This document shows positions 29,513-46,900 of a stretch of DNA of 64,000 nucleotides, piece by piece (position 1 is the stretch's first letter; the number at the start of each line of letters is the position of its first letter). A model generated the notes under the pieces. That model searched no databases, had not been told where the DNA came from, and worked only from the letters and a program-made list of their open reading frames with translations. The stretch lies in the NCBI RefSeq assembly GCF_009931435.1, contig NZ_CP043414.1. One strand, given 5' to 3'. A program made the position numbers and the translations under genes. Origin of the DNA: Escherichia coli (lineage in GTDB: Bacteria > Pseudomonadota > Gammaproteobacteria > Enterobacterales > Enterobacteriaceae).

Positions 29513-30564
29513 AATCCCAGCACCAGTTGTCTTTCCATTTGCGGATCAAGCAACGTCACATGCAGCCCCACCAGTCGCACACCGCGTCCGCCCCGGCGTT
29601 CATCCCAGGTTTTACGCGCAGTGGCGATCAAGTCAGCTTTATTCAGCCGCGGCCAGACGTGTTCCTGGGTGGTTTGCTGAAAATCGTCGAACTTTAATTT
29701 CACCCCCTGGCGGGCAATCAGTAAATCAGGTTTTACCTTTGCCAGACGACGCTCCAGTTCAGGGTAAAGCCGCTCGATGATCGCTTCACATTCAGACCAG
29801 TGATGAATATCTTCCGCCATGGTGCGTTCTACACCGACGGATTTTCGCAACCTTTCGCTGTTAACGTCGCGCTCGTCAATCCCCTGACTACGCTCCCACA
29901 AAATGCGACCAAATTTGCCAAAGCGTTTAAGCAACGTCACCAGATCACACTTTTGTACATCGCCGCAGGTCCGCAGCCCCATCGCTTCCAGTTTTGCCGC
30001 CGAGACTTTGCCGACACCGGGAATTTTTGCCAGCGGTAAGGTTTGCAGAAATGCCGGGACGTCCGCCGGCGTAATCACAAACTGTCCGTTGGGTTTATTC
30101 ATATCAGAGGCGATTTTGGCGAGAAACTTGACCGGCGCAACGCCCGCAGACGCCGTCAGTTGCAGCTCGTTGAAGATCGTCTGGCGGATTTCCTGAGCGA
30201 TAAGGGTCGCAGAGCCGTGGCAATGTACGCTGTCGGTGACGTCGAGATAGGCTTCATCCAGTGACAGCGGCTCAATACGCGATGTGTAGCGAGAGAAGAT
30301 TTCGCGGATATGATTTGACGCTTCTTTGTAGGCGTCAAAGCGCCCTGGAAGCAAGGTGAGATGCGGACACAGTTTGAGCGCCATGCCGGTTGGCATTGCG
30401 CTACGCACGCCAAATTTACGCGCGGGATAATTGGCGGTGCTGATCACCCCCCGGCGTTCGCGGCTGCCGCCAATAGCAATAGGGATATCGCGCAGGGCGG
30501 GATTGTCGCGCATCTCCACCGCGGCGAAAAAGCAGTCCATATCCACATGAATGATTTTACGCAT
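29509..30564 (-). CDS. dinB: DinB, DNA polymerase IV
   Basis: 351 aa, recognised as DinB ([33 protein letters not shown]...). Confidence 0.95.
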
Positions 30565-30578
30565 TGCTCACCTCTCAA

Positions 30579-30598
30579 CACTGGTAAAGTATACAGTG
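30579..30598 (-). promoter_or_regulatory. LexA (SOS) box of dinB
   Basis: Plus strand CACTGGTAAAGTATACAGTG = reverse complement of CACTGTATACTTTACCAGTG, a CTGT-N8-ACAG palindrome about 15 nt upstream of the dinB start. Confidence 0.6.
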
Positions 30599-30634
30599 AT
30601 TTCAGAGTTTGAGAAATGCGTAAAGATTCAGCAT

Positions 30635-31400
30635 TTAACGCGTTCGCTGCGAAAGCACCTGCTGCTTATCCAGCTTTTTCACCAGCGGCTGCACCACCTT
30701 ATCCCCATGCTGACCAAAATATTGATACAACGTATCAGACGCGCTTTTGGTGAGCACCATAATCTCAATGCGCCGGTTACCCGCACTTTGCGGATTTTTC
30801 GTGTCCAGCAGCATCTGGTCCGCCATTGCGCTCACCTGCATCACTTTATCTTCCGGCATCCCGGCCTCTTCCAGCACCCGACGAGCCGAGAGCGCACGAT
30901 CGCCCGAAAGGTTCCAGTTGTTGTAGATATTGCTTTTATAGGCCATCGCATCGGTATGCCCGGTAATAATAATTTTGTTATCGAGCGAGTCGAATACCGG
31001 CGCGAGCTCCACCAGCAGAGTTTTAAAGAACGGCATAATCTTCGCGCTGCCGCGTTCAAACATATTGCGGTTCTGGTCATCTTTAATCAGCACGCGTAAT
31101 CCCTGCGGGACAATCTCCATCTCCAGATTGGCTTCCATATGCGCATCGCGGGCGATGGTGTTGATACTGGTCGCCAGCTCGCCAAGCTCAGTGGCGGACT
31201 TCTTCTTCAGTAGCGCCGTTTTCTCGTTGACGTCGCGGGCTTTTTTCTCCGTCTCTTCCGGCACCGCCACGGTGGCAGGTTTCAGCGGATGCGTCGGGCT
31301 GATTTTATTTAACGGCGATAGCCCGCCGCCATTGAAAATCGACTGCCCGTGCAGCGCGGCGATAATGCTTTCACGCTCGGATTTACTGACGCTGTTGACA
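30635..31400 (-). pseudogene. lafU: lafU (Flag-2 MotB-like) fragment, N-terminally truncated
   Basis: Track ORF 30635-31552; MotB-like OmpA C-terminal domain (ITGHTDAMAYKSNIYNNWNLSGDRALSARRVLEEAG) but no proper TM/N-terminus; its 5' part is antisense to the lfhA fragment. Boundary approximate. Confidence 0.6.
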
Positions 31401-33104
31401 ATCAACTTTATTGTCGTCACCAAAGGGGCTGAGCGTATTTCCGAGGTTTCTGCCCGCTTTACCCTGGACGCGATGCCCGGCAAGCAAATGGCGATTGACG
31501 CCGATCTTAACGCCGGGTTGATCAACCAGGCGCAGGCGCAGACCCGCCGCAAAGATGTTGCCAGCGAGGCCGATTTCTACGGCGCGATGGACGGGGCATC
31601 GAAGTTTGTGCGCGGGGATGCCATCGCCGGGATGATGATTCTGGCGATCAACCTGATTGGCGGCGTTTGTATCGGGATCTTCAAATACAACCTGAGCGCC
31701 GATGCCGCCTTCCAGCAATATGTGCTGATGACCATCGGCGACGGCCTGGTGGCGCAGATCCCGTCCCTGCTGCTTTCCACCGCGGCGGCGATTATCGTCA
31801 CCCGCGTCAGCGACAACGGCGATATTGCCCATGACGTGCGCCACCAGTTGCTGGCAAGCCCGTCGGTGCTCTACACCGCCACCGGGATTATGTTCGTGCT
31901 GGCGGTGGTGCCGGGAATGCCGCACTTCCCGTTCCTGATGTTCAGCGCCCTGCTTGGTTTTACCGGCTGGCGAATGAGCAAACGCCCGCAGGCGGCGGAG
32001 GCGGAAGAGAAAAGCCTCGAAACGCTGACCCGCACCATCACTGAAACCAGCGATCAACAGGTCAGTTGGGAAACCATTCCGCTGATCGAGCCCATCAGTT
32101 TAAGCCTCGGTTACAAGCTGGTGGCGCTGGTGGACAAAGCGCAGGGCAACCCGCTCACCCAGCGTATTCGCGGCGTGCGGCAGGTGATTTCCGACGGCAA
32201 CGGCGTGCTGCTGCCGGAGATCCGCATTCGGGAAAACTTCCGCCTCAAGCCCAGCCAGTACGCCATTTTCATCAACGGCATTAAGGCTGATGAAGCGGAT
32301 ATTCCGGCGGATAAACTGATGGCCCTGCCCTCCAGCGAAACCTACGGCGAGATTGACGGCGTGCTGGGGAACGACCCGGCGTACGGGATGCCGGTGACCT
32401 GGATTCAGCCCGCGCAGAAGGCGAAGGCGCTGAATATGGGGTATCAGGTGATCGACAGCGCCAGCGTAATTGCCACGCATGTGAATAAGATTGTGCGCAG
32501 CTATATTCCTGATTTGTTTAACTATGACGATATTACTCAGCTGCATAACCGTTTGTCGTCAATGGCACCGCGCCTGGCAGAGGATTTGAGTGCGGCGCTG
32601 AATTACAGCCAGTTGCTGAAAGTGTACCGGGCACTGCTGACCGAAGGCGTTTCCCTGCGCGATATCGTCACCATCGCCACCGTGCTGGTCGCCAGTAGCA
32701 CCGTCACCAAAGATCATATTCTGCTGGCGGCCGATGTGCGCCTGGCACTGCGGCGCAGCATTACCCATCCGTTCGTTCGCAAGCAGGAGCTGACGGTGTA
32801 TACGCTGAATAATGAGCTGGAAAATCTGCTGACCAACGTGGTGAATCAGGCGCAACAGGCCGGCAAAGTGATGCTCGATAGCGTGCCGGTTGACCCAAAT
32901 ATGCTCAACCAGTTCCAGAGCACGATGCCGCAGGTGAAGGAGCAGATGAAAGCGGCAGGTAAAGACCCGGTGCTGCTGGTGCCGCCGCAGCTGCGCCCGT
33001 TGCTGGCGCGTTATGCGAGGTTATTTGCGCCGGGGTTGCATGTGCTGTCGTATAACGAAGTGCCGGACGAGCTGGAGTTGAAGATTATGGGGGCGTTGAG
33101 TTGA
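31401..33104 (+). pseudogene. lfhA: lfhA (Flag-2 FlhA-like) fragment lacking its N-terminal membrane region
   Basis: Track ORF 30975-33104; FlhA similarity begins about codon 143 (INFIVVTKGAERISEVSARFTLDAMPGKQMAIDADLNAG), earlier codons are antisense of lafU; no promoter or start at the homology onset. Boundary approximate. Confidence 0.6.
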
Positions 33105-33187
33105 TTGAGGATTCTTTTCCATACTTTGCAGCACCTGACACCATTAATTGACGTCACACTGCAAAGAGACTACGATGACACCATACA

Positions 33188-33487
33188 ATGACGTCATGGA
33201 TTGATAGTATGATTAAGGTCAGCGCGCTAGGCTCTCGTCATAGAAAAACATTCGACGATGTAATGACGGAGCCGCCAAAATCTGGAATTAAATGGGATGA
33301 TGTTGTTGCTCTCATTAAAGCGGTGGGTGGATCAATAAAAAATAACAACGGCTCCAGACGAAAATTTCAGATTGGAACGACCAAATTCAGCACACATGAG
33401 CCGCATCCAAAGAATGTGATGGATAAAGGCGCAGTAGCAGGTCTTAAGGAGTGGTTTGTTAACTGTGTAGGGGTAGATTATGAATAA
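33188..33487 (+). CDS. Putative HicA-like toxin (type II TA), hypothetical
   Basis: 99-aa ORF overlapping the next ORF by 8 nt; C-terminal half (VVALIKAVGGSIKNNNGSRRKFQIGTTKFSTHEPHPKNVMDKGAVAGLKEW) loosely fits the HicA/YcfA pattern. Start uncertain (alternative ATG about 21 nt downstream). Confidence 0.4.
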   Translation: MTSWIDSMIKVSALGSRHRKTFDDVMTEPPKSGIKWDDVVALIKAVGGSIKNNNGSRRKFQIGTTKFSTHEPHPKNVMDKGAVAGLKEWFVNCVGVDYE

Positions 33488-33836
33488 AGCATCGAACATT
33501 ATCACAATTAAAGGTCAACCAGCCGCAGTGACATTTGAAGCCGATATCAACGCATTTCGCGGCAAGTTCCTCAATGTAAACGGTTATTGTGACTTTGTAG
33601 CCACAAGTATTGAGGCATTATATCGTGAAGGCGAAAGCGCTCTGGATGAGTGGATGGCGGATTGTGAAGAGGACGGTATTGCCCCTTTTCGTGAAGAAGA
33701 AGAGCAAAAACGCCTGACGCTTCGTGTGCCGCATCACATCGATTCGCGGCTGACCATCGTCGCCAGACAACATTCCATTTCAAAAAACCAGCTCATTATT
33801 GATGTCTTAGAACGTGAGTTTTCAGCCCAGATGTAA
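33480..33836 (+). CDS. Putative HicB-like antitoxin with C-terminal ribbon-helix-helix
   Basis: 118 aa; N-terminal HicB/UPF0150-like segment and C-terminal RHH-like segment (KRLTLRVPHHIDSRLTIVARQHSISKNQLIIDVLEREF). Confidence 0.5.
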   Translation: MNKASNIITIKGQPAAVTFEADINAFRGKFLNVNGYCDFVATSIEALYREGESALDEWMADCEEDGIAPFREEEEQKRLTLRVPHHIDSRLTIVARQHSISKNQLIIDVLEREFSAQM

Positions 33837-33858
33837 ACAGGTCGTCAATATTACCCAT

Positions 33859-34608
33859 TTACAAAATCGTCTCTTCCGTCAAAATCCGCCGCGCGCCTAA
33901 AAAATGATCCTGCCAGAAAGGTTCAGCTAACCGACTTACCCGAATGGTTTCCCCGGTGCGCGGCGACTCGATAAACTGACCGTCTCCCAGATACACGCCC
34001 ATATGGTCGGCAATCTCGCGGCTGTGAATATGGAAAAACAGCAAATCTCCCCGGCGCAGGTCGTTATTTGCCACAATGGTTGCCCGACGGTAGTGATACA
34101 TCTCATTGGCCGTGCGCGGGAGTTTCGCCTCGAGGATCTTGTTGTAGGCATAAAAAACCAACCCGCTACAGTCGAAGCCTTTATCAGGCCGCGTACCTCC
34201 CCAGACGTAAGGCTTACCAAGCTGCTGCTCCAGACGGTGAATCGCTACTTCGGTGATGTTATGCAGATGGTCGCTGCTTAAGAAATGGTTGTTTTCCGCC
34301 AGCGCCTGCCAATGTTTATCGCTCAACTTCAACGGTGCAGGGAACCACTCAGGATGCTGTTTTATCTGCTCCCGGTTGTGCTGGCGCAGCGCCCTTCTGC
34401 TTTGTGCATCGCCTTCCACAATGTAGCTGGCCTGTTTTTTCAGATGCGCGTGGTATCGCTTTAGCAATCGCGTACGGTTTTGCATCCGCTGGCGGGCGGC
34501 GTAGCTGAAAGAGATATGTGATGCGGTGGCGCTGGCAAATGAAGAAAACGGCAAGCAAAGCAACAATAATCCCGACAACACAAAAGAGGGAATCGACGGC
34601 AAAGACAT
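33859..34608 (-). CDS. yafL: YafL, NlpC/P60-family lipoprotein endopeptidase
   Basis: Track ORF 33859-34668; YafL is 249 aa starting MSLPSIPSFVLSGLLLLCLPF, so start at 34608; NlpC/P60 Cys motif (GFDCSGLVFYAY). Confidence 0.85.
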   Translation of the reverse strand: MSLPSIPSFVLSGLLLLCLPFSSFASATASHISFSYAARQRMQNRTRLLKRYHAHLKKQASYIVEGDAQSRRALRQHNREQIKQHPEWFPAPLKLSDKHWQALAENNHFLSSDHLHNITEVAIHRLEQQLGKPYVWGGTRPDKGFDCSGLVFYAYNKILEAKLPRTANEMYHYRRATIVANNDLRRGDLLFFHIHSREIADHMGVYLGDGQFIESPRTGETIRVSRLAEPFWQDHFLGARRILTEETIL

Positions 34609-34817
34609 TCTCAATAATGGCTGGTCATGCATTGATGTTGCAGTGTATCCCGGCCCGTACCTGAACAAACTTAATAAACCATTATTATAAAATTAATAAA
34701 TATATTTCAGTTAATTATGTAAAAACATCCGTTTATTAAATTACTCATGGATTGTCGTTGTTGCTCATTTGAGCTACAATTCAAGCTGAATAAATATACA
34801 GCACAGGAGATACCCCA

Positions 34818-35078
34818 ATGGCTGCTAACGCGTTTGTTCGCGCCCGAATCGATGAAGATCTGAAGAATCAGGCGGCGGACGTACTGGCCGGGATGGGGCT
34901 GACCATCTCTGACCTGGTTCGCATAACCCTCACAAAAGTCGCGCGTGAAAAGGCATTGCCGTTTGATTTACGCGAGCCTAATCAATTAACCATTCAATCA
35001 ATTAAAAACAGCGAAGCTGGCGTTGATGTTCATAAGGCCAAAGACGCCGATGATTTATTTGATCAATTAGGAATTTAA
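34818..35078 (+). CDS. dinJ: DinJ antitoxin
   Basis: 86 aa recognised as DinJ (MAANAFVRARIDEDLKNQAADVLAGMGLTISDLVRI...). Confidence 0.9.
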   Translation: MAANAFVRARIDEDLKNQAADVLAGMGLTISDLVRITLTKVAREKALPFDLREPNQLTIQSIKNSEAGVDVHKAKDADDLFDQLGI

Positions 35079-35080
35079 AT

Positions 35081-35359
35081 ATGATTCAAAGGGATATTGA
35101 ATACTCGGGACAATTTTCAAAGGATGTAAAACTTGCACAAAAGCGTCATAATGATATGAATAAATTGAAATATCTTATGACGCTTCTTATCAATAATACT
35201 TTACCACTTCCAGCTGTTTATAAAGACCACCCGCTGCAAGGTTCATGGAAAGGTTATCGCGATGCTCATGTTGAACCGGACTGGATCCTGATTTACAAAC
35301 TTACCGATAAACTTTTACGATTTGAGAGAACTGGAACTCACGCGGCGCTATTTGGGTAA
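35081..35359 (+). CDS. yafQ: YafQ toxin (RelE-family mRNA interferase)
   Basis: 92 aa recognised as YafQ; 2 nt after the dinJ stop. Confidence 0.9.
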   Translation: MIQRDIEYSGQFSKDVKLAQKRHNDMNKLKYLMTLLINNTLPLPAVYKDHPLQGSWKGYRDAHVEPDWILIYKLTDKLLRFERTGTHAALFG

Positions 35360-35514
35360 AGCCCGCTTCCGATGAAATTTGTAAACCCTGCGCCGACAGG
35401 CTTGCGTAAAACTCTTTTGGTGATAATGTGAGCCTTCCAAATCCAGACTATTCCGATTTGGGATCCATTTTGCCGTCCTGGCGTGTGTAACCGTTTTATC
35501 AAGGAATAAGCAGT

Positions 35515-36255
35515 ATGCGTAAAATCGCATTAATTCTTGCGATGTTGTTGATCCCGTGCGTTTCGTTTGCCGGTTTGCTGGGCAGCAGTAGCTCGACCAC
35601 GCCAGTGAGCAAAGAGTATAAGCAGCAGTTGATGGGCTCCCCTGTCTACATCCAGATCTTCAAGGAAGAGCGCACTCTCGATCTCTACGTCAAAATGGGT
35701 GAGCAATATCAGCTGCTCGACAGTTATAAAATCTGTAAATATTCCGGCGGATTAGGGCCTAAACAGCGTCAGGGCGATTTCAAAAGCCCGGAAGGGTTTT
35801 ATAGCGTCCAGCGTAATCAGTTAAAACCAGACAGCCGTTACTACAAAGCGATTAATATTGGATTCCCCAATGCTTATGACCGTGCGCATGGTTATGAAGG
35901 GAAATACCTGATGATTCACGGCGATTGTGTTTCCATCGGCTGCTACGCGATGACCAATCAAGGTATTGATGAGATCTTCCAGTTCGTTACTGGCGCGCTG
36001 GTGTTTGGTCAGCCAAGCGTGCAAGTGAGTATTTACCCGTTCCGCATGACCGACGCCAACATGCAGCGCCATAAATATTCCAACTTTAAGGACTTCTGGG
36101 AGCAACTGAAGCCGGGCTACGACTACTTTGAACAAACCCGTAAGCCACCGACCGTTTCTGTGGTCAATGGTCGTTACGTGGTCAGCAAGCCGTTAAGCCA
36201 CGAAGTGGTGCAGCCACAGCTGGCATCAAACTACACGCTCCCCGAGGCAAAATAA
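35515..36255 (+). CDS. yafK: YafK/DpaA, L,D-transpeptidase-fold periplasmic protein
   Basis: 246 aa, signal peptide [19 protein letters not shown], YkuD-type domain; recognised as YafK. Confidence 0.9.
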
Positions 36256-36993
36256 GCGCCATTCGCCTGGCATAATCTTTTGCCAGGTTTCATTGCCCGT
36301 CAGCGGCTGTGTCGCAATCACCGTGACCACATCATTCGGTGTGGTCTGCGAGCTGAAGTCGATTTCCACATCCTGATCCAGCAACGTTGCCACGCCAAAC
36401 GGCGCGCGGCGGGTGATCCAGTGCAGATTGGTCGAGCAATACGCCATTACATAGCGTCCGTCCGAAAGTAGCATGTTGAAAACGCCCTTCTGCCGCAGTT
36501 CATCCGCCAGTGAGGCGATATATTTAAACACTGCCGCCATGTTGCCTGGTGTGCGCGGGTAACGCTGTGTTAATTTATGCAGCAGCCAGCAAAAGGCTTT
36601 TTCGCTGTCGGTTTCACCTACCGGACGGAAGTTGCCGGTTTCCAGTGACTTGTACCCCGTCAGTTGCCCGTTATGGGCATAAGTCCAGTTGCGTCCCCAT
36701 AACTCGCGGGTAAACGGGTGAGTATTTTCCAGCGCCACCTCGCCCCGATTGGCCTGGCGAATATGAGCCACCACCGAACAGGATTTTATCGGGTAGTCCT
36801 GGACAAGTTTGGCGATGGGGGAATTAAAGCTGGGTTGTGGATCTTTAAATGTGCGACAGCCTTTACCTTCGTAAAAGGTAATGCCCCAGCCATCTTTATG
36901 TGGCCCGGTTCCACCACCACGCTGCACCAGACCGGTGAAACTAAAGCAGATATCGGTAGGGACGTTAGCGCTCATCCCGAGCAATTCGCACAT
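36226..36993 (-). CDS. yafJ: YafJ, class II glutamine amidotransferase-like protein
   Basis: Track ORF 36226-37008; YafJ is 255 aa starting [11 protein letters not shown], so start 36993 (GGAGG SD); 3' end overlaps yafK by 30 nt (convergent). Confidence 0.9.
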
Positions 36994-37049
36994 GGGTAAC
37001 CTCCACAACAGCGGGAGCGCATGGCCCCCGGCGAAGATTGATTTAAGAA

Positions 37050-43950: not shown

Positions 43951-46900
43951 CTATTCTGGCGTACCCGTTATTGTCATCGTCTGCAACGGTCCATCCACCC
44001 GATAAAAAGGCAGTCCACTATGAGCTCCTCTGACACACTCATCTAAAGTTTTCGCCGCACGCGATTCAATTATTGTAATAACCCTTGCCTCTTCTTTATT
44101 ATCATATTTCTTATCCGTCCGACTTAAAAGAGCCATGAAATTTTCTTTATCAAGAAGGTAATACTGTGCATGTGCAAACTCATGCCCCAAACCTAATGCA
44201 GGCGATTGTGATTTCGAGTTTAATTCAGTTGAACAAAATAAAGACGCTCTACTATTCCAATATATCGTCATATTATTCGAATTAAATCTACCATTGGTTC
44301 CTTCAATATACTCTATATTTATAGTTTCTTCAGAGCTTGATAAAAAATCTATAGCATCTTTCATTCGTGAATCTTTTTCTAAATACTTAACAGCCTGATT
44401 AAAATCACTTGGATCACCATTAACCTCGAATTTTAAACCCAAAGAATCTATAAACCGAACAGGGTTTAATGGATATTTATACAGATTCCATTCACCTCTT
44501 AGCCCGATTGGATCCTGCGTGATATACCTCCCCTGCAACGGGTCATAGTACCGGTGACGGTTGTAGTACAGCCCCGACTCCTCATCATACTGCTGCCCTG
44601 GCAGACGGTACGGCTGTTGCAGGTGCTCCGGGTTTTCCTCTCCCAGCAGGTTTCCCCACTCGTCATACTCCCCGCGCCACGCCGTTTCCCCTTCCGGGCT
44701 GATAAGCGCCTGCGGCAGCCCACGGTGGTCACAGTGGTAAAGATGAAGTTTCCTCTCCGGGATGTATTCTTCCTCCATCTGGTTGTTCATCTGTTCCGCC
44801 GTCAGCCCGCACTGCGCAAGCCATGCTTCACTCTCCGCACTCACCGCACCCGCGCGCAGTTCCCGCTCCAGCCTCCCCAGCATCACCGACAGCTCCGCCG
44901 GGAGCGTCACACCCGTGTCCTCCTGCAACACCTCCGCCAGGCTACGGTGCCGCGCCTTCGCCTGTTCGCCATTCTCTGTTTCGATTCTCAGGAGCGGCGT
45001 GAAGCTTCCCGGCTGATAAATCGTCTGGATACGTGTGGTGCCGGTCTGTACCGTCGTCAGCCTGTCACCGTCCCACCCGTACCATGTCTCCTCCGGTTTA
45101 CGCGACAGCGACATCCATCCCGTCAGGTCACGCTCCCGCCGCCACACCCGTTTTCCCGTCCTGCGGCCCAGCGGGTCGTAAAGGTAGCGGCTCTCCACCT
45201 GCGGCTCGCCGTGCTGTATCCGCGTGTAGAACACCAGACGGTGCTGGCTGTCGTAATGGTAGTGGTGGGTGCGCTCGTCGTGCATCCGTATCACCCCTTC
45301 CGGGATACGGTCCGTCTTCTCCGCCAGCCTGCCGTATTCATCGTGGCGGTAGACATAGTGCGCATCTTCCGCGATGCGGTTATCCGGCCACGCCGTGAAG
45401 GTGCTGTCCGGGTGCAGTTCCGGGTCCGGCAGCCGGTTTCCTGCCGGGTCCGTCGCATACGGGATATCAATGTCCAGGTTCGCTGCCGTGGTGTGGACGC
45501 CCGTCAGCCTTCCCGTGTCGCTGTAACGGTACTCCCGGCTCTCCTGCGGGCCGCTGATACGCACCAGTTGCCCGTTATCATTCCACGTATACTCACGGTC
45601 AAGCTGCGGAAGGTTCAGGTGCCTGCTCCGGAGCTGGCCTGTGAGGGTGTATGTGCTGGTCAGTTCATATGCGGCATTACTGCCTGCCATGCTGCCGAAG
45701 CTGCGCACCGTCTCACGGTGCAGCCTGTCCCGCGTGTACTCGACCAGCGGCGTTCCGCCCAGCTTCATCCCCGCAAGATAACCGCTGCCATACGTCAGCC
45801 ACTCCACCGGCGGCAGACCGTCCGGCTCCTGACGGGTCGCCAGCCCCTGTTCGCTGTACGCGTGCCCCGTCTCATGCTCCCACAGCATCTCCCCCGTCTC
45901 CGGGTTCTCCACCGTCTGCCGTTCGCCCGTCAGGCGGCCCTTATCGTCATAGCCGTAGTGGACCGCCACACGGTGGCCTTCACTGGTATGGCTGAGGGTG
46001 GTTAACCACCCGTGCTCATCATACTGCCACTGCTCTGCCGCTTCGCCGTTCACCGTCCGGTGCGTGATGCGGTCCGACGCATCGTAGTGCCAGAGGGTGA
46101 TAAGTCCCTCGTCTTCACTGCGGACAAGCTGCCCTGTGGCGCTGTACCGGTAACGCTGTGTCCGTCCGTCAAAGCCGCGCTGCTCCGTCAGGCGGTCCAC
46201 CGGGTCATACAGGAACGTGGACTGGCTGCCGTTCTCATTAGTCAGCGTGGTGATGCGCCCGGCGGCGTCATACCCCATGCTGCGCGTCAGACCGCCCTGC
46301 GTGGTGCTGATAGCTTTACCCCACGCATCATACTGTGTCTCACTGCGGCTGCCGTTCGGGGCAATGATAGCGGTGAGGTCGCCTGCGGCGCTGTACTCAT
46401 AACGGGTTTCACGCCCCTGCACATCCTTCTGACTGACCAGTTGACCACGCGGGTTATAACTGCTGTAAGTGCTGATGCCTTCTTCCCGGTGAACCGCCGT
46501 CCTCTGCCCGTACCGGTCGTACTCATACCGTGTCGTGTACCCCGAGCAGTCCGTGAAGGCCAGCAGTTGACCGTAGCGGCTCCATGCCATCTGTTTTGTA
46601 CTGCCCGTCGCATCCTGTATCCCTGTCGGCAGCTCACTCGCCGGGTCATCATAGCTGTACCGCGTCGTCTCACCGCTGCGCGAGGTCTCCGCCGCCAGCC
46701 TTCCCTTCTCATCATACTCCCGGCTGCTGCGAAGCCCGTCCGGGTACGTCACTGACGTCACCTGCCGCTGGCTGTTGTAGCCATACCGCACCGTCCTGCC
46801 GTCCGGCCCCGTCACCGCCGTCACCGCGCCCGACGCCATATGCAGGCTGTACTCCGTCCGCCGCCCCGCCGCATCCGTCTGCGCCTTCAGCCTCCCCGCC

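Follow-up and report, generated by a model that had tools for sequence, protein, structure and literature searches.

At one site of the Escherichia coli chromosome, between lfhA and yafL, the window analysed here (the whole stretch of 64,000 nucleotides) carries a short pair of genes where K-12 has the REP-associated transposase gene rayT. The locus raises the question of what this pair encodes and how its expression is controlled. The segment concerned comprises 760 bp (33100–33859) and lies between the stop codons of the lfhA fragment (33104) and of the − strand gene yafL (33859), which is the site of the rayT REPtron in K-12. In a blastn comparison, collinear homology to K-12 MG1655 with 94–95 % identity extends to 33099, five nucleotides short of the lfhA stop, and restarts at 33860, at the yafL stop. 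According to the K-12 annotation, the counterpart of the gap consists of about 900 bp with rayT and its flanking REP/BIMEs. No homology between 33100–33859 and this K-12 region (L003:4462–5363) was detected by blastn and no REP sequence was found in the segment, which thus has neither the Y1 HUH transposase gene nor the REP/BIME elements of a REPtron. With a GC content of 43.9 % compared to 58 % in lfhA and 53 % in yafL, the segment is taken to be of foreign origin. As the initial annotation had stated, its two overlapping open reading frames are located on the + strand, opposite to yafL, and the toxin–antitoxin (TA) genes dinJ-yafQ follow beyond yafL (34818–35359).

The surroundings of the segment vary between strains. 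The lafU/lfhA junction in the window is the Flag-2 deletion scar that K-12 also carries, with a lafU fragment joined to the lfhA fragment. Strain 2020CK-00188 (L001:1–4005) harbours a 100 % identical hicAB segment, yet its Flag-2 cluster is intact (flhA, flhB, fliR). Compared with the scar in the window (30002–33099) this indicates that the cassette and the Flag-2 deletion assort independently. The flanking core genes (30002–33099 and 33860–37000) are just 94–95 % identical to K-12 and only 7 of the 1479 hicAB-positive genomes match the segment with at least 99 %, pointing towards a comparatively divergent E. coli lineage as the source of the window. In strains carrying hicAB or hicB, such as E2348/69 (L002:5544–5854) and a second one (L004:3654–3953), dinJ-yafQ is absent between yafL and dpaA, so that two TA modules flanking yafL are one of several combinations at this site. 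E2348/69 and most hicAB-bearing E. coli further possess a 34-bp insert 3′ of hicB (compare L002:4738–4793 and L004:2848–2903), a hairpin with a 12-bp stem followed by TTTT (−27 kcal/mol) that is likely a terminator between the convergent genes hicB and yafL. The window and its closest relatives are devoid of this insert; here the two stop codons are separated by 22 nt (33837–33858) with no terminator-like site. An Rfam scan of 32900–34000 returned a sub-threshold chance match only.

A megablast survey of the locus, as the initial annotation had proposed, showed that, of 5426 complete E. coli genomes, 1479 (27 %) contain the hicAB segment, nearly always as a single chromosomal copy; rayT was found in 3575 of the same 5426. 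The distribution is that of an accessory, horizontally mobile module, in accordance with the low GC content and with relatives that occur on an IncFII plasmid as well as at chromosomal sites of unrelated context. The label "uncharacterised" is only in part appropriate. RefSeq names the two products "type II toxin-antitoxin system HicA family toxin" and "HicB family antitoxin" throughout these 1479 genomes, and Ton-Hoang et al. (2012, NAR 40:3596, PMC3333891) described that hicAB replaces tnpAREP (rayT) and BIMEs between yafL and fhiA. Their cassette, described for IAI1 and other B1 strains of E. coli, is the same one at the same locus as in the window, so that with the routine annotation the central observation was already known. 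That study recorded only the presence of the genes, whereas the proteins, the operator and the function are the subject of the present analysis. We found no experimental work on this module in the literature. What is added here is a conserved architecture of four operator boxes and the assignment of the toxin to a large, apparently unstudied HicA sub-group.

Read from its first ATG, the upstream gene would span 33188–33487 on the + strand and encode 99 amino acids. The most likely start is, however, located at 33209, giving a hicA of 92 codons (33209–33487, + strand). This start agrees with the one in RefSeq, with the N-termini of the homologues, which show MIK, MIN or MIQ at this position in all complete sequences bar one (P0021), and with a GGA Shine-Dalgarno-like motif (33198–33200) that is conserved across loci 8–12 nt 5′ of it. 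The in-frame ATG at 33188 is merely the "ATG" that precedes one of the palindromes discussed below (box 4). In the other loci such an ATG either meets a stop codon or lies in another frame. The longer reading was rejected on these grounds. hicB (33480–33836, + strand, 118 amino acids) lies directly downstream in the same operon, which is the gene order expected for an RHH-type HicB. The 8-nt overlap of the two genes (ATGAATAA) is conserved in all related loci and suggests translational coupling of hicB to hicA.

The family membership was assessed by profile searches, and these assigned neither protein to an unrelated family. The HicA_toxin model of Pfam (PF07927) matches the first protein over model positions 1–50 of 58 (i-Evalue 1.7e-6, 28.5 bits), and in PHROGs it falls into phrog_8887, "toxin" (5e-20). 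The second protein matches Pfam HicB (PF05534) with residues 60–110 (E 4e-10) as well as the PHROGs families "HicB-like antitoxin" (5e-13) and phrog_582, Arc-like repressor (7.5e-5). Scans with NCBIfam and PADLOC gave no model matching HicA or HicB, and a single HicA or HicB sequence as query detected no solved structure.

For HicB, the AF2 model (pLDDT 84.5, about 90 over the N-terminal region) shows a β-β-β-β-α arrangement over residues 7–65 (strands 7–10, 13–20, 25–30 and 38–41, helix 44–65). Together with the Foldseek matches this identifies a partial RNase-H-like domain. The C-terminal part (about 77–117) forms a ribbon-helix-helix (RHH) with helices 85–97 and 102–117 after an extended segment, and the family profile aligns this part to the RHH of AmrZ (weakly, E 0.012) and Arc. 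The top Foldseek matches are the RHH-type HicBs of Burkholderia pseudomallei (6G26_A, probability 1.00) and Yersinia pestis (4P7D_A, 0.98), followed by 2DSY and 6G1C. The Foldseek E-values are weak (0.01–0.16). Those of the four HicB matches named span 0.01–2, with about 0.01–0.05 for the top two, which we attribute to the free orientation of the two domains in the monomer model. The earlier reading of the pair as a type II HicAB module is supported by the Pfam, PHROGs and HicB structure matches, and the pair fits class 4 of Gerdes, hicAB with an RHH HicB (PMC10865869).

The AF2 model of HicA (pLDDT 96.6) exhibits the dsRBD-like α1-β1-β2-β3-α2 fold of the family, preceded by an extra N-terminal helix (9–19). 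According to literature, every characterised HicA has an essential His at the start of β2 (Bps H24, Yp H28, Ec H23, Stp H36, Sm H24, Ng H24; PMC11594946, PMC12297915). In the window protein the first residue of β2 in the model is Arg50 instead. A profile of the sub-group, built from 55 representative clusters, aligns GS-R50 to GS-(H24A) of 4C26/6G26 and to GS-H28 of 4P78. The initial annotation had called the HicA assignment weak; the doubt was reasonable in view of an Arg at the catalytic position, but the fold is that of HicA. Single-sequence and close-family profile searches against the PDB sequences reached no HicA, and the broad sub-group profile reaches 6G26/4C26 weakly (E about 0.015).

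The exchange is a property of the sub-group. In an exhaustive profile search the full-length relatives amounted to at least 634 representative clusters. In an alignment of 143 sequences (the window protein and 142 relatives) position 50 is Arg in 120, and only 9 of the 143 have any His at positions 48–53. Other residues are near-invariant: G48 in 140, S49 in 141, H63 and P65 in 138 each and H66 in 140 of the 143. G48 corresponds to the conserved Gly of the β1-β2 loop (Gly22 of Bps and Ng HicA). In the model, β2 (50–55) and β3 (58–63) are connected by a two-residue turn, R50 opens β2 and H63 closes β3. From this strand register, rather than from distances, we infer that R50 and H63 would be cross-strand neighbours, and in our reading the active site may have been rebuilt around these two residues and not lost. 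We tentatively suggest, as a reading that falls short of an even chance, that the "GSR...HxPHP" HicAs, the sub-group of the window protein, characterised by the additional N-terminal helix, the Arg in the catalytic place and the near-invariant His63 and His66, form a mechanistically distinct clade in which either the catalytic His has moved to β3, with His63 facing Arg50, or the chemistry or the target differs from that of the known HicA RNases.

Comparison with studied systems underlines both the family membership and the distance. HicAB of B. pseudomallei (PDB 6G26, 4C26), likewise with an RHH-type HicB, is the best structural match for both window proteins, and its HicA is the sole solved one reached by the sub-group profile (E 0.015). 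Its Gly22 is the invariant G48 of the window protein and its essential His24 aligns to Arg50. The identity in structural alignments amounts to only 12–18 %, and BpsHicB binds one palindromic region at the −10, unlike the paired boxes of the window. HicA3/HicB3 of Y. pestis (PDB 4P78, 4P7D) shares the order hicA-then-hicB, gives a structural match for both proteins and has a HicB composed in the same way, with the partial RNase-H-like domain at the N-terminus and the RHH at the C-terminus. The layout of its promoter PhicA3 also resembles that of the window: one upstream promoter has an operator made of inverted repeats on either side (BS1 and BS2, of which one overlaps the −10), and a HicB3 tetramer binds to both (PMC11594946). 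In contrast, its operators are 15-bp repeats, whereas those predicted here are pairs of 8-bp TGACGTCA boxes, the Y. pestis genes are 174 bp apart instead of overlapping by 8 nt, and YpHicA3 carries the catalytic His28 in place of Arg50 and has no counterpart of the extra N-terminal helix. No similarity to the Y. pestis pair was detected with the single window protein sequences, and 4P78 was non-significant with the family profile (E 1.3).

HicAB of E. coli K-12 (hicA b4532/hicB b1438) has the family name, the gene order and the status of a chromosomal TA system in common with the pair. It differs by an HTH instead of an RHH domain in HicB, by two promoters and an intergenic gap of 45 nt, by a HicA of 58 amino acids with the catalytic His23 and by its location elsewhere, at 1.509 Mb; when the two family alignments were compared with the K-12 proteins by hhalign, no meaningful alignment resulted. 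In HicA(O)B of IncX4 plasmids the reading frames overlap with no internal terminator, as in the window, and toxicity and neutralisation were demonstrated (Lin et al. 2025, PMC11878559); that system is not of the sub-group described here. A tblastn search of window HicA against 72,556 plasmids found only five Escherichia records, all with 95–99 % identity. The common IncI2 and IncX4 loci are not among the hits, and a link to these experimentally studied plasmid HicABs was discarded.

The control region is the second point of interest. The twin palindromes of the initial annotation were verified as exact copies of TGACGTCA at 33149–33156 and 33189–33196, 40 bp apart. Each closes, on its 3′ side, a directly repeated sequence of 21 nt, TGACACCATnnAnTGACGTCA, located at 33136–33156 and 33176–33196 on the + strand, and these repeats are the predicted operators O1 and O2. 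O1 consists of a degenerate box 1 (TGACACCA, 33136–33143), a 5-nt spacer and the perfect box 2 (33149–33156); O2 has the same composition with box 3 (TGACACCA, 33176–33183) and box 4 (33189–33196). A consensus scan placed a sigma-70-like promoter (predicted, 9 of 12 matches) at 33148–33176 on the + strand, with a −35 of TTGACG (33148–33153), a 17-nt spacer and a −10 of TACGAT (33171–33176). Box 2 overlaps the −35, while box 3 begins on the last base of the −10 and spans the expected transcription start (about 33183). The second palindrome had been described as overlapping the first start codon. With the start at 33209 this does not hold, and the palindrome ends up 13 nt upstream.

To judge these elements, seven loci with unrelated neighbouring genes were compared, namely L006 on a Salmonella IncFII plasmid, L007, L008, L010, L012, L013 and L017, with HicA identities to the window of 58–74 % in the first six of these. 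Four TGACGTCA-like boxes occur in all seven loci at −73/−75, −60/−62, −33/−32 and −20/−19 from the hicA ATG. No more than one mismatch was found in 27 of the 28 boxes, where the background frequency is 0.05 per 100 nt, and the remaining upstream DNA of these loci is unalignable with synonymous sites saturated. In every locus of the alignment an A/T-rich −10-like hexamer immediately precedes box 3. The boxes are arranged as two pairs with a spacing of 13 bp within the pair, the first pair overlapping the −35 and the second adjoining the −10. This phylogenetic footprint strongly supports a set of four conserved boxes interspersed with the −35 and −10 elements, through which the promoter may be autoregulated. 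The palindromes are very probably the operator of the hicAB module, and their earlier designation as candidate RHH operators receives strong support from the conservation of the boxes in the seven loci. Boxes 2 and 4 are perfect in E. coli, and boxes 1 and 3, with two mismatches each, are decayed in the E. coli version of the predicted four-box operator. The near-invariance of T80 and R82 in the β-strand of HicB is in line with a conserved DNA target of this protein.

Two further observations concern the same region. In L016:859–880, at the locus of a more distant relative (HicB 47 % identical), the pair of TGACGTCA boxes is replaced by a perfect 21-bp palindrome, TGACTTCAAATATTGAAGTCA, which keeps the 13-bp spacing with changed inner bases. 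This geometry suggests the box pair as the recognition unit, and the locus is a possible case of co-evolution of operator and repressor. In the window itself, a perfect 8-nt inverted repeat (CTTTGCAG/CTGCAAAG, 33124–33131 and 33159–33166) brackets O1 with its centre 1 nt off that of the box pair. Since it is not conserved in the other loci, it was not counted within the operator.

Indirect hints at a toxin that arrests growth or cleaves RNA come from selection, gene loss and plasmid contexts. Both genes are under purifying selection, with dN/dS values of 0.03–0.26 where measurable (about 0.1–0.26 for hicA). Between the window and E2348/69 the value for hicA is 0.09 and hicB shows no non-synonymous change. 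A partial match of the segment was obtained in about 110 E. coli genomes, and all three that were sampled keep hicB only. In one of them, E. coli AR_0372 (L004:2416–2500, corresponding to 33105–33490 of the window), hicA is cleanly deleted and an orphan hicB is left. The −10, boxes 3 and 4 (TGACATCA and TGACGTCA), the Shine-Dalgarno motif and the hicA ATG are retained and lead straight into hicB, which gains a new N-terminus (MMKTRLLISQASN...). A second, independent inactivation of the toxin with the antitoxin kept was observed in a Leclercia-like metagenome contig (L018:930–1208; compare L017), in which hicA has a premature stop at codon 47, just before the GSR motif, and hicB and all four operator boxes are intact. 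On plasmids the hicAB relatives adjoin parA, ccdAB and repA, as on the Salmonella IncFII plasmid (ccdAB, parA) and on a contig with an IncFII repA; several chromosomal contexts occur as well. Some relatives have another TA pair as their immediate neighbour, namely ccdAB on the Salmonella plasmid (L006:2513–3066) and a HigB-like/HTH pair on a Leclercia-like contig (L017:1627–2338). This clustering echoes that of hicAB and dinJ-yafQ in the window.

Taken together, we consider the pair to be, with high likelihood, a horizontally acquired chromosomal type II TA operon of the HicAB family. A single sigma-70 promoter (−35 at 33148, −10 at 33171) would give rise to a bicistronic hicA-hicB mRNA, and translation of hicB would be coupled to that of hicA by the 8-nt overlap. 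HicA would act as a growth-arresting toxin of the dsRBD fold, most probably an RNase, with a non-canonical active site in which Arg50 at the start of β2 and the near-invariant His63 facing it on β3 may take part. HicB would neutralise it by its partial RNase-H-like domain, and RHH dimers of HicB would repress the promoter by binding to the 8-bp boxes, arranged in two 21-bp pairs, O1 covering part of the −35 and O2 reaching from the −10 over the presumed transcription start.

Three other readings have to be weighed against or beside this one. The exchange of the canonical catalytic His for Arg in 120 of the 143 sequences could also mean that the HicA-like product, a dsRBD protein, has lost its catalytic activity or been repurposed, perhaps as a co-regulator that binds RNA, and that the pair is a HicB-centred regulatory module with no working TA function. 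The loss of hicA from genomes that keep hicB would fit such a role, as would the lack of any defence-system or NCBIfam model for the pair. We nevertheless regard it as quite improbable. The five residues G48, S49, H63, P65 and H66 are near-invariant in a sub-group that comprises at least 634 clusters, and hicA evolves under purifying selection; the plasmid relatives reside beside partition and ccdAB genes, and the PHROGs family is labelled a toxin. Loss of the toxin with retention of the antitoxin is the usual route by which real TA modules decay, and an Arg can serve RNA cleavage in other toxins such as RelE. With respect to the palindromes, coincidence or sites of a host factor unrelated to HicB might be invoked, given that the motif is short, that E. 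coli has just two perfect copies at the operon and that two more occur in the window at 46753 and 52879 (four in 64 kb compared to 0.93 expected). Four boxes, each at a constant distance from the hicA start codon, in seven loci that share hicAB only, including plasmids and other genera, their interleaving with the promoter elements, and the distant relative that maintains a 13-bp-spaced palindromic pair with altered inner sequence, as co-evolution with a repressor would give, make this explanation extremely unlikely.

The third reading concerns the benefit to the host and is compatible at the molecular level with a HicAB TA operon. The main role could be anti-phage defence by abortive infection in place of genome or plasmid stabilisation. 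An anti-phage function has been suggested for HicA domains (PMC10865869), PHROGs contains phage-encoded relatives of both proteins, and an accessory cassette present in 27 % of the genomes would suit such a function. Opposed to this, no PADLOC model matches the pair and no defence genes neighbour the locus in the window, so that defence as the main role appears somewhat unlikely.

As first put, the finding carries little weight, since the cassette is routinely annotated and the replacement of rayT was published in 2012. For E. coli as a species, the polymorphism of hicAB versus rayT marks lineages that lost the REP transposase, and REPIN populations were reported to shrink in RAYT-less strains (bioRxiv 10.1101/2021.07.10.451892). 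The predicted operator is now precise enough for testing with few oligonucleotides. For the HicA family, the toxin sub-group breaks the rule of an "essential His at the start of β2", and mutagenesis of R50, H63 and H66 is feasible in E. coli. If these toxins do represent a distinct clade, of which apparently no member has been studied, the cassette of E. coli, including the conserved operator of four TGACGTCA boxes, would serve conveniently as its model.
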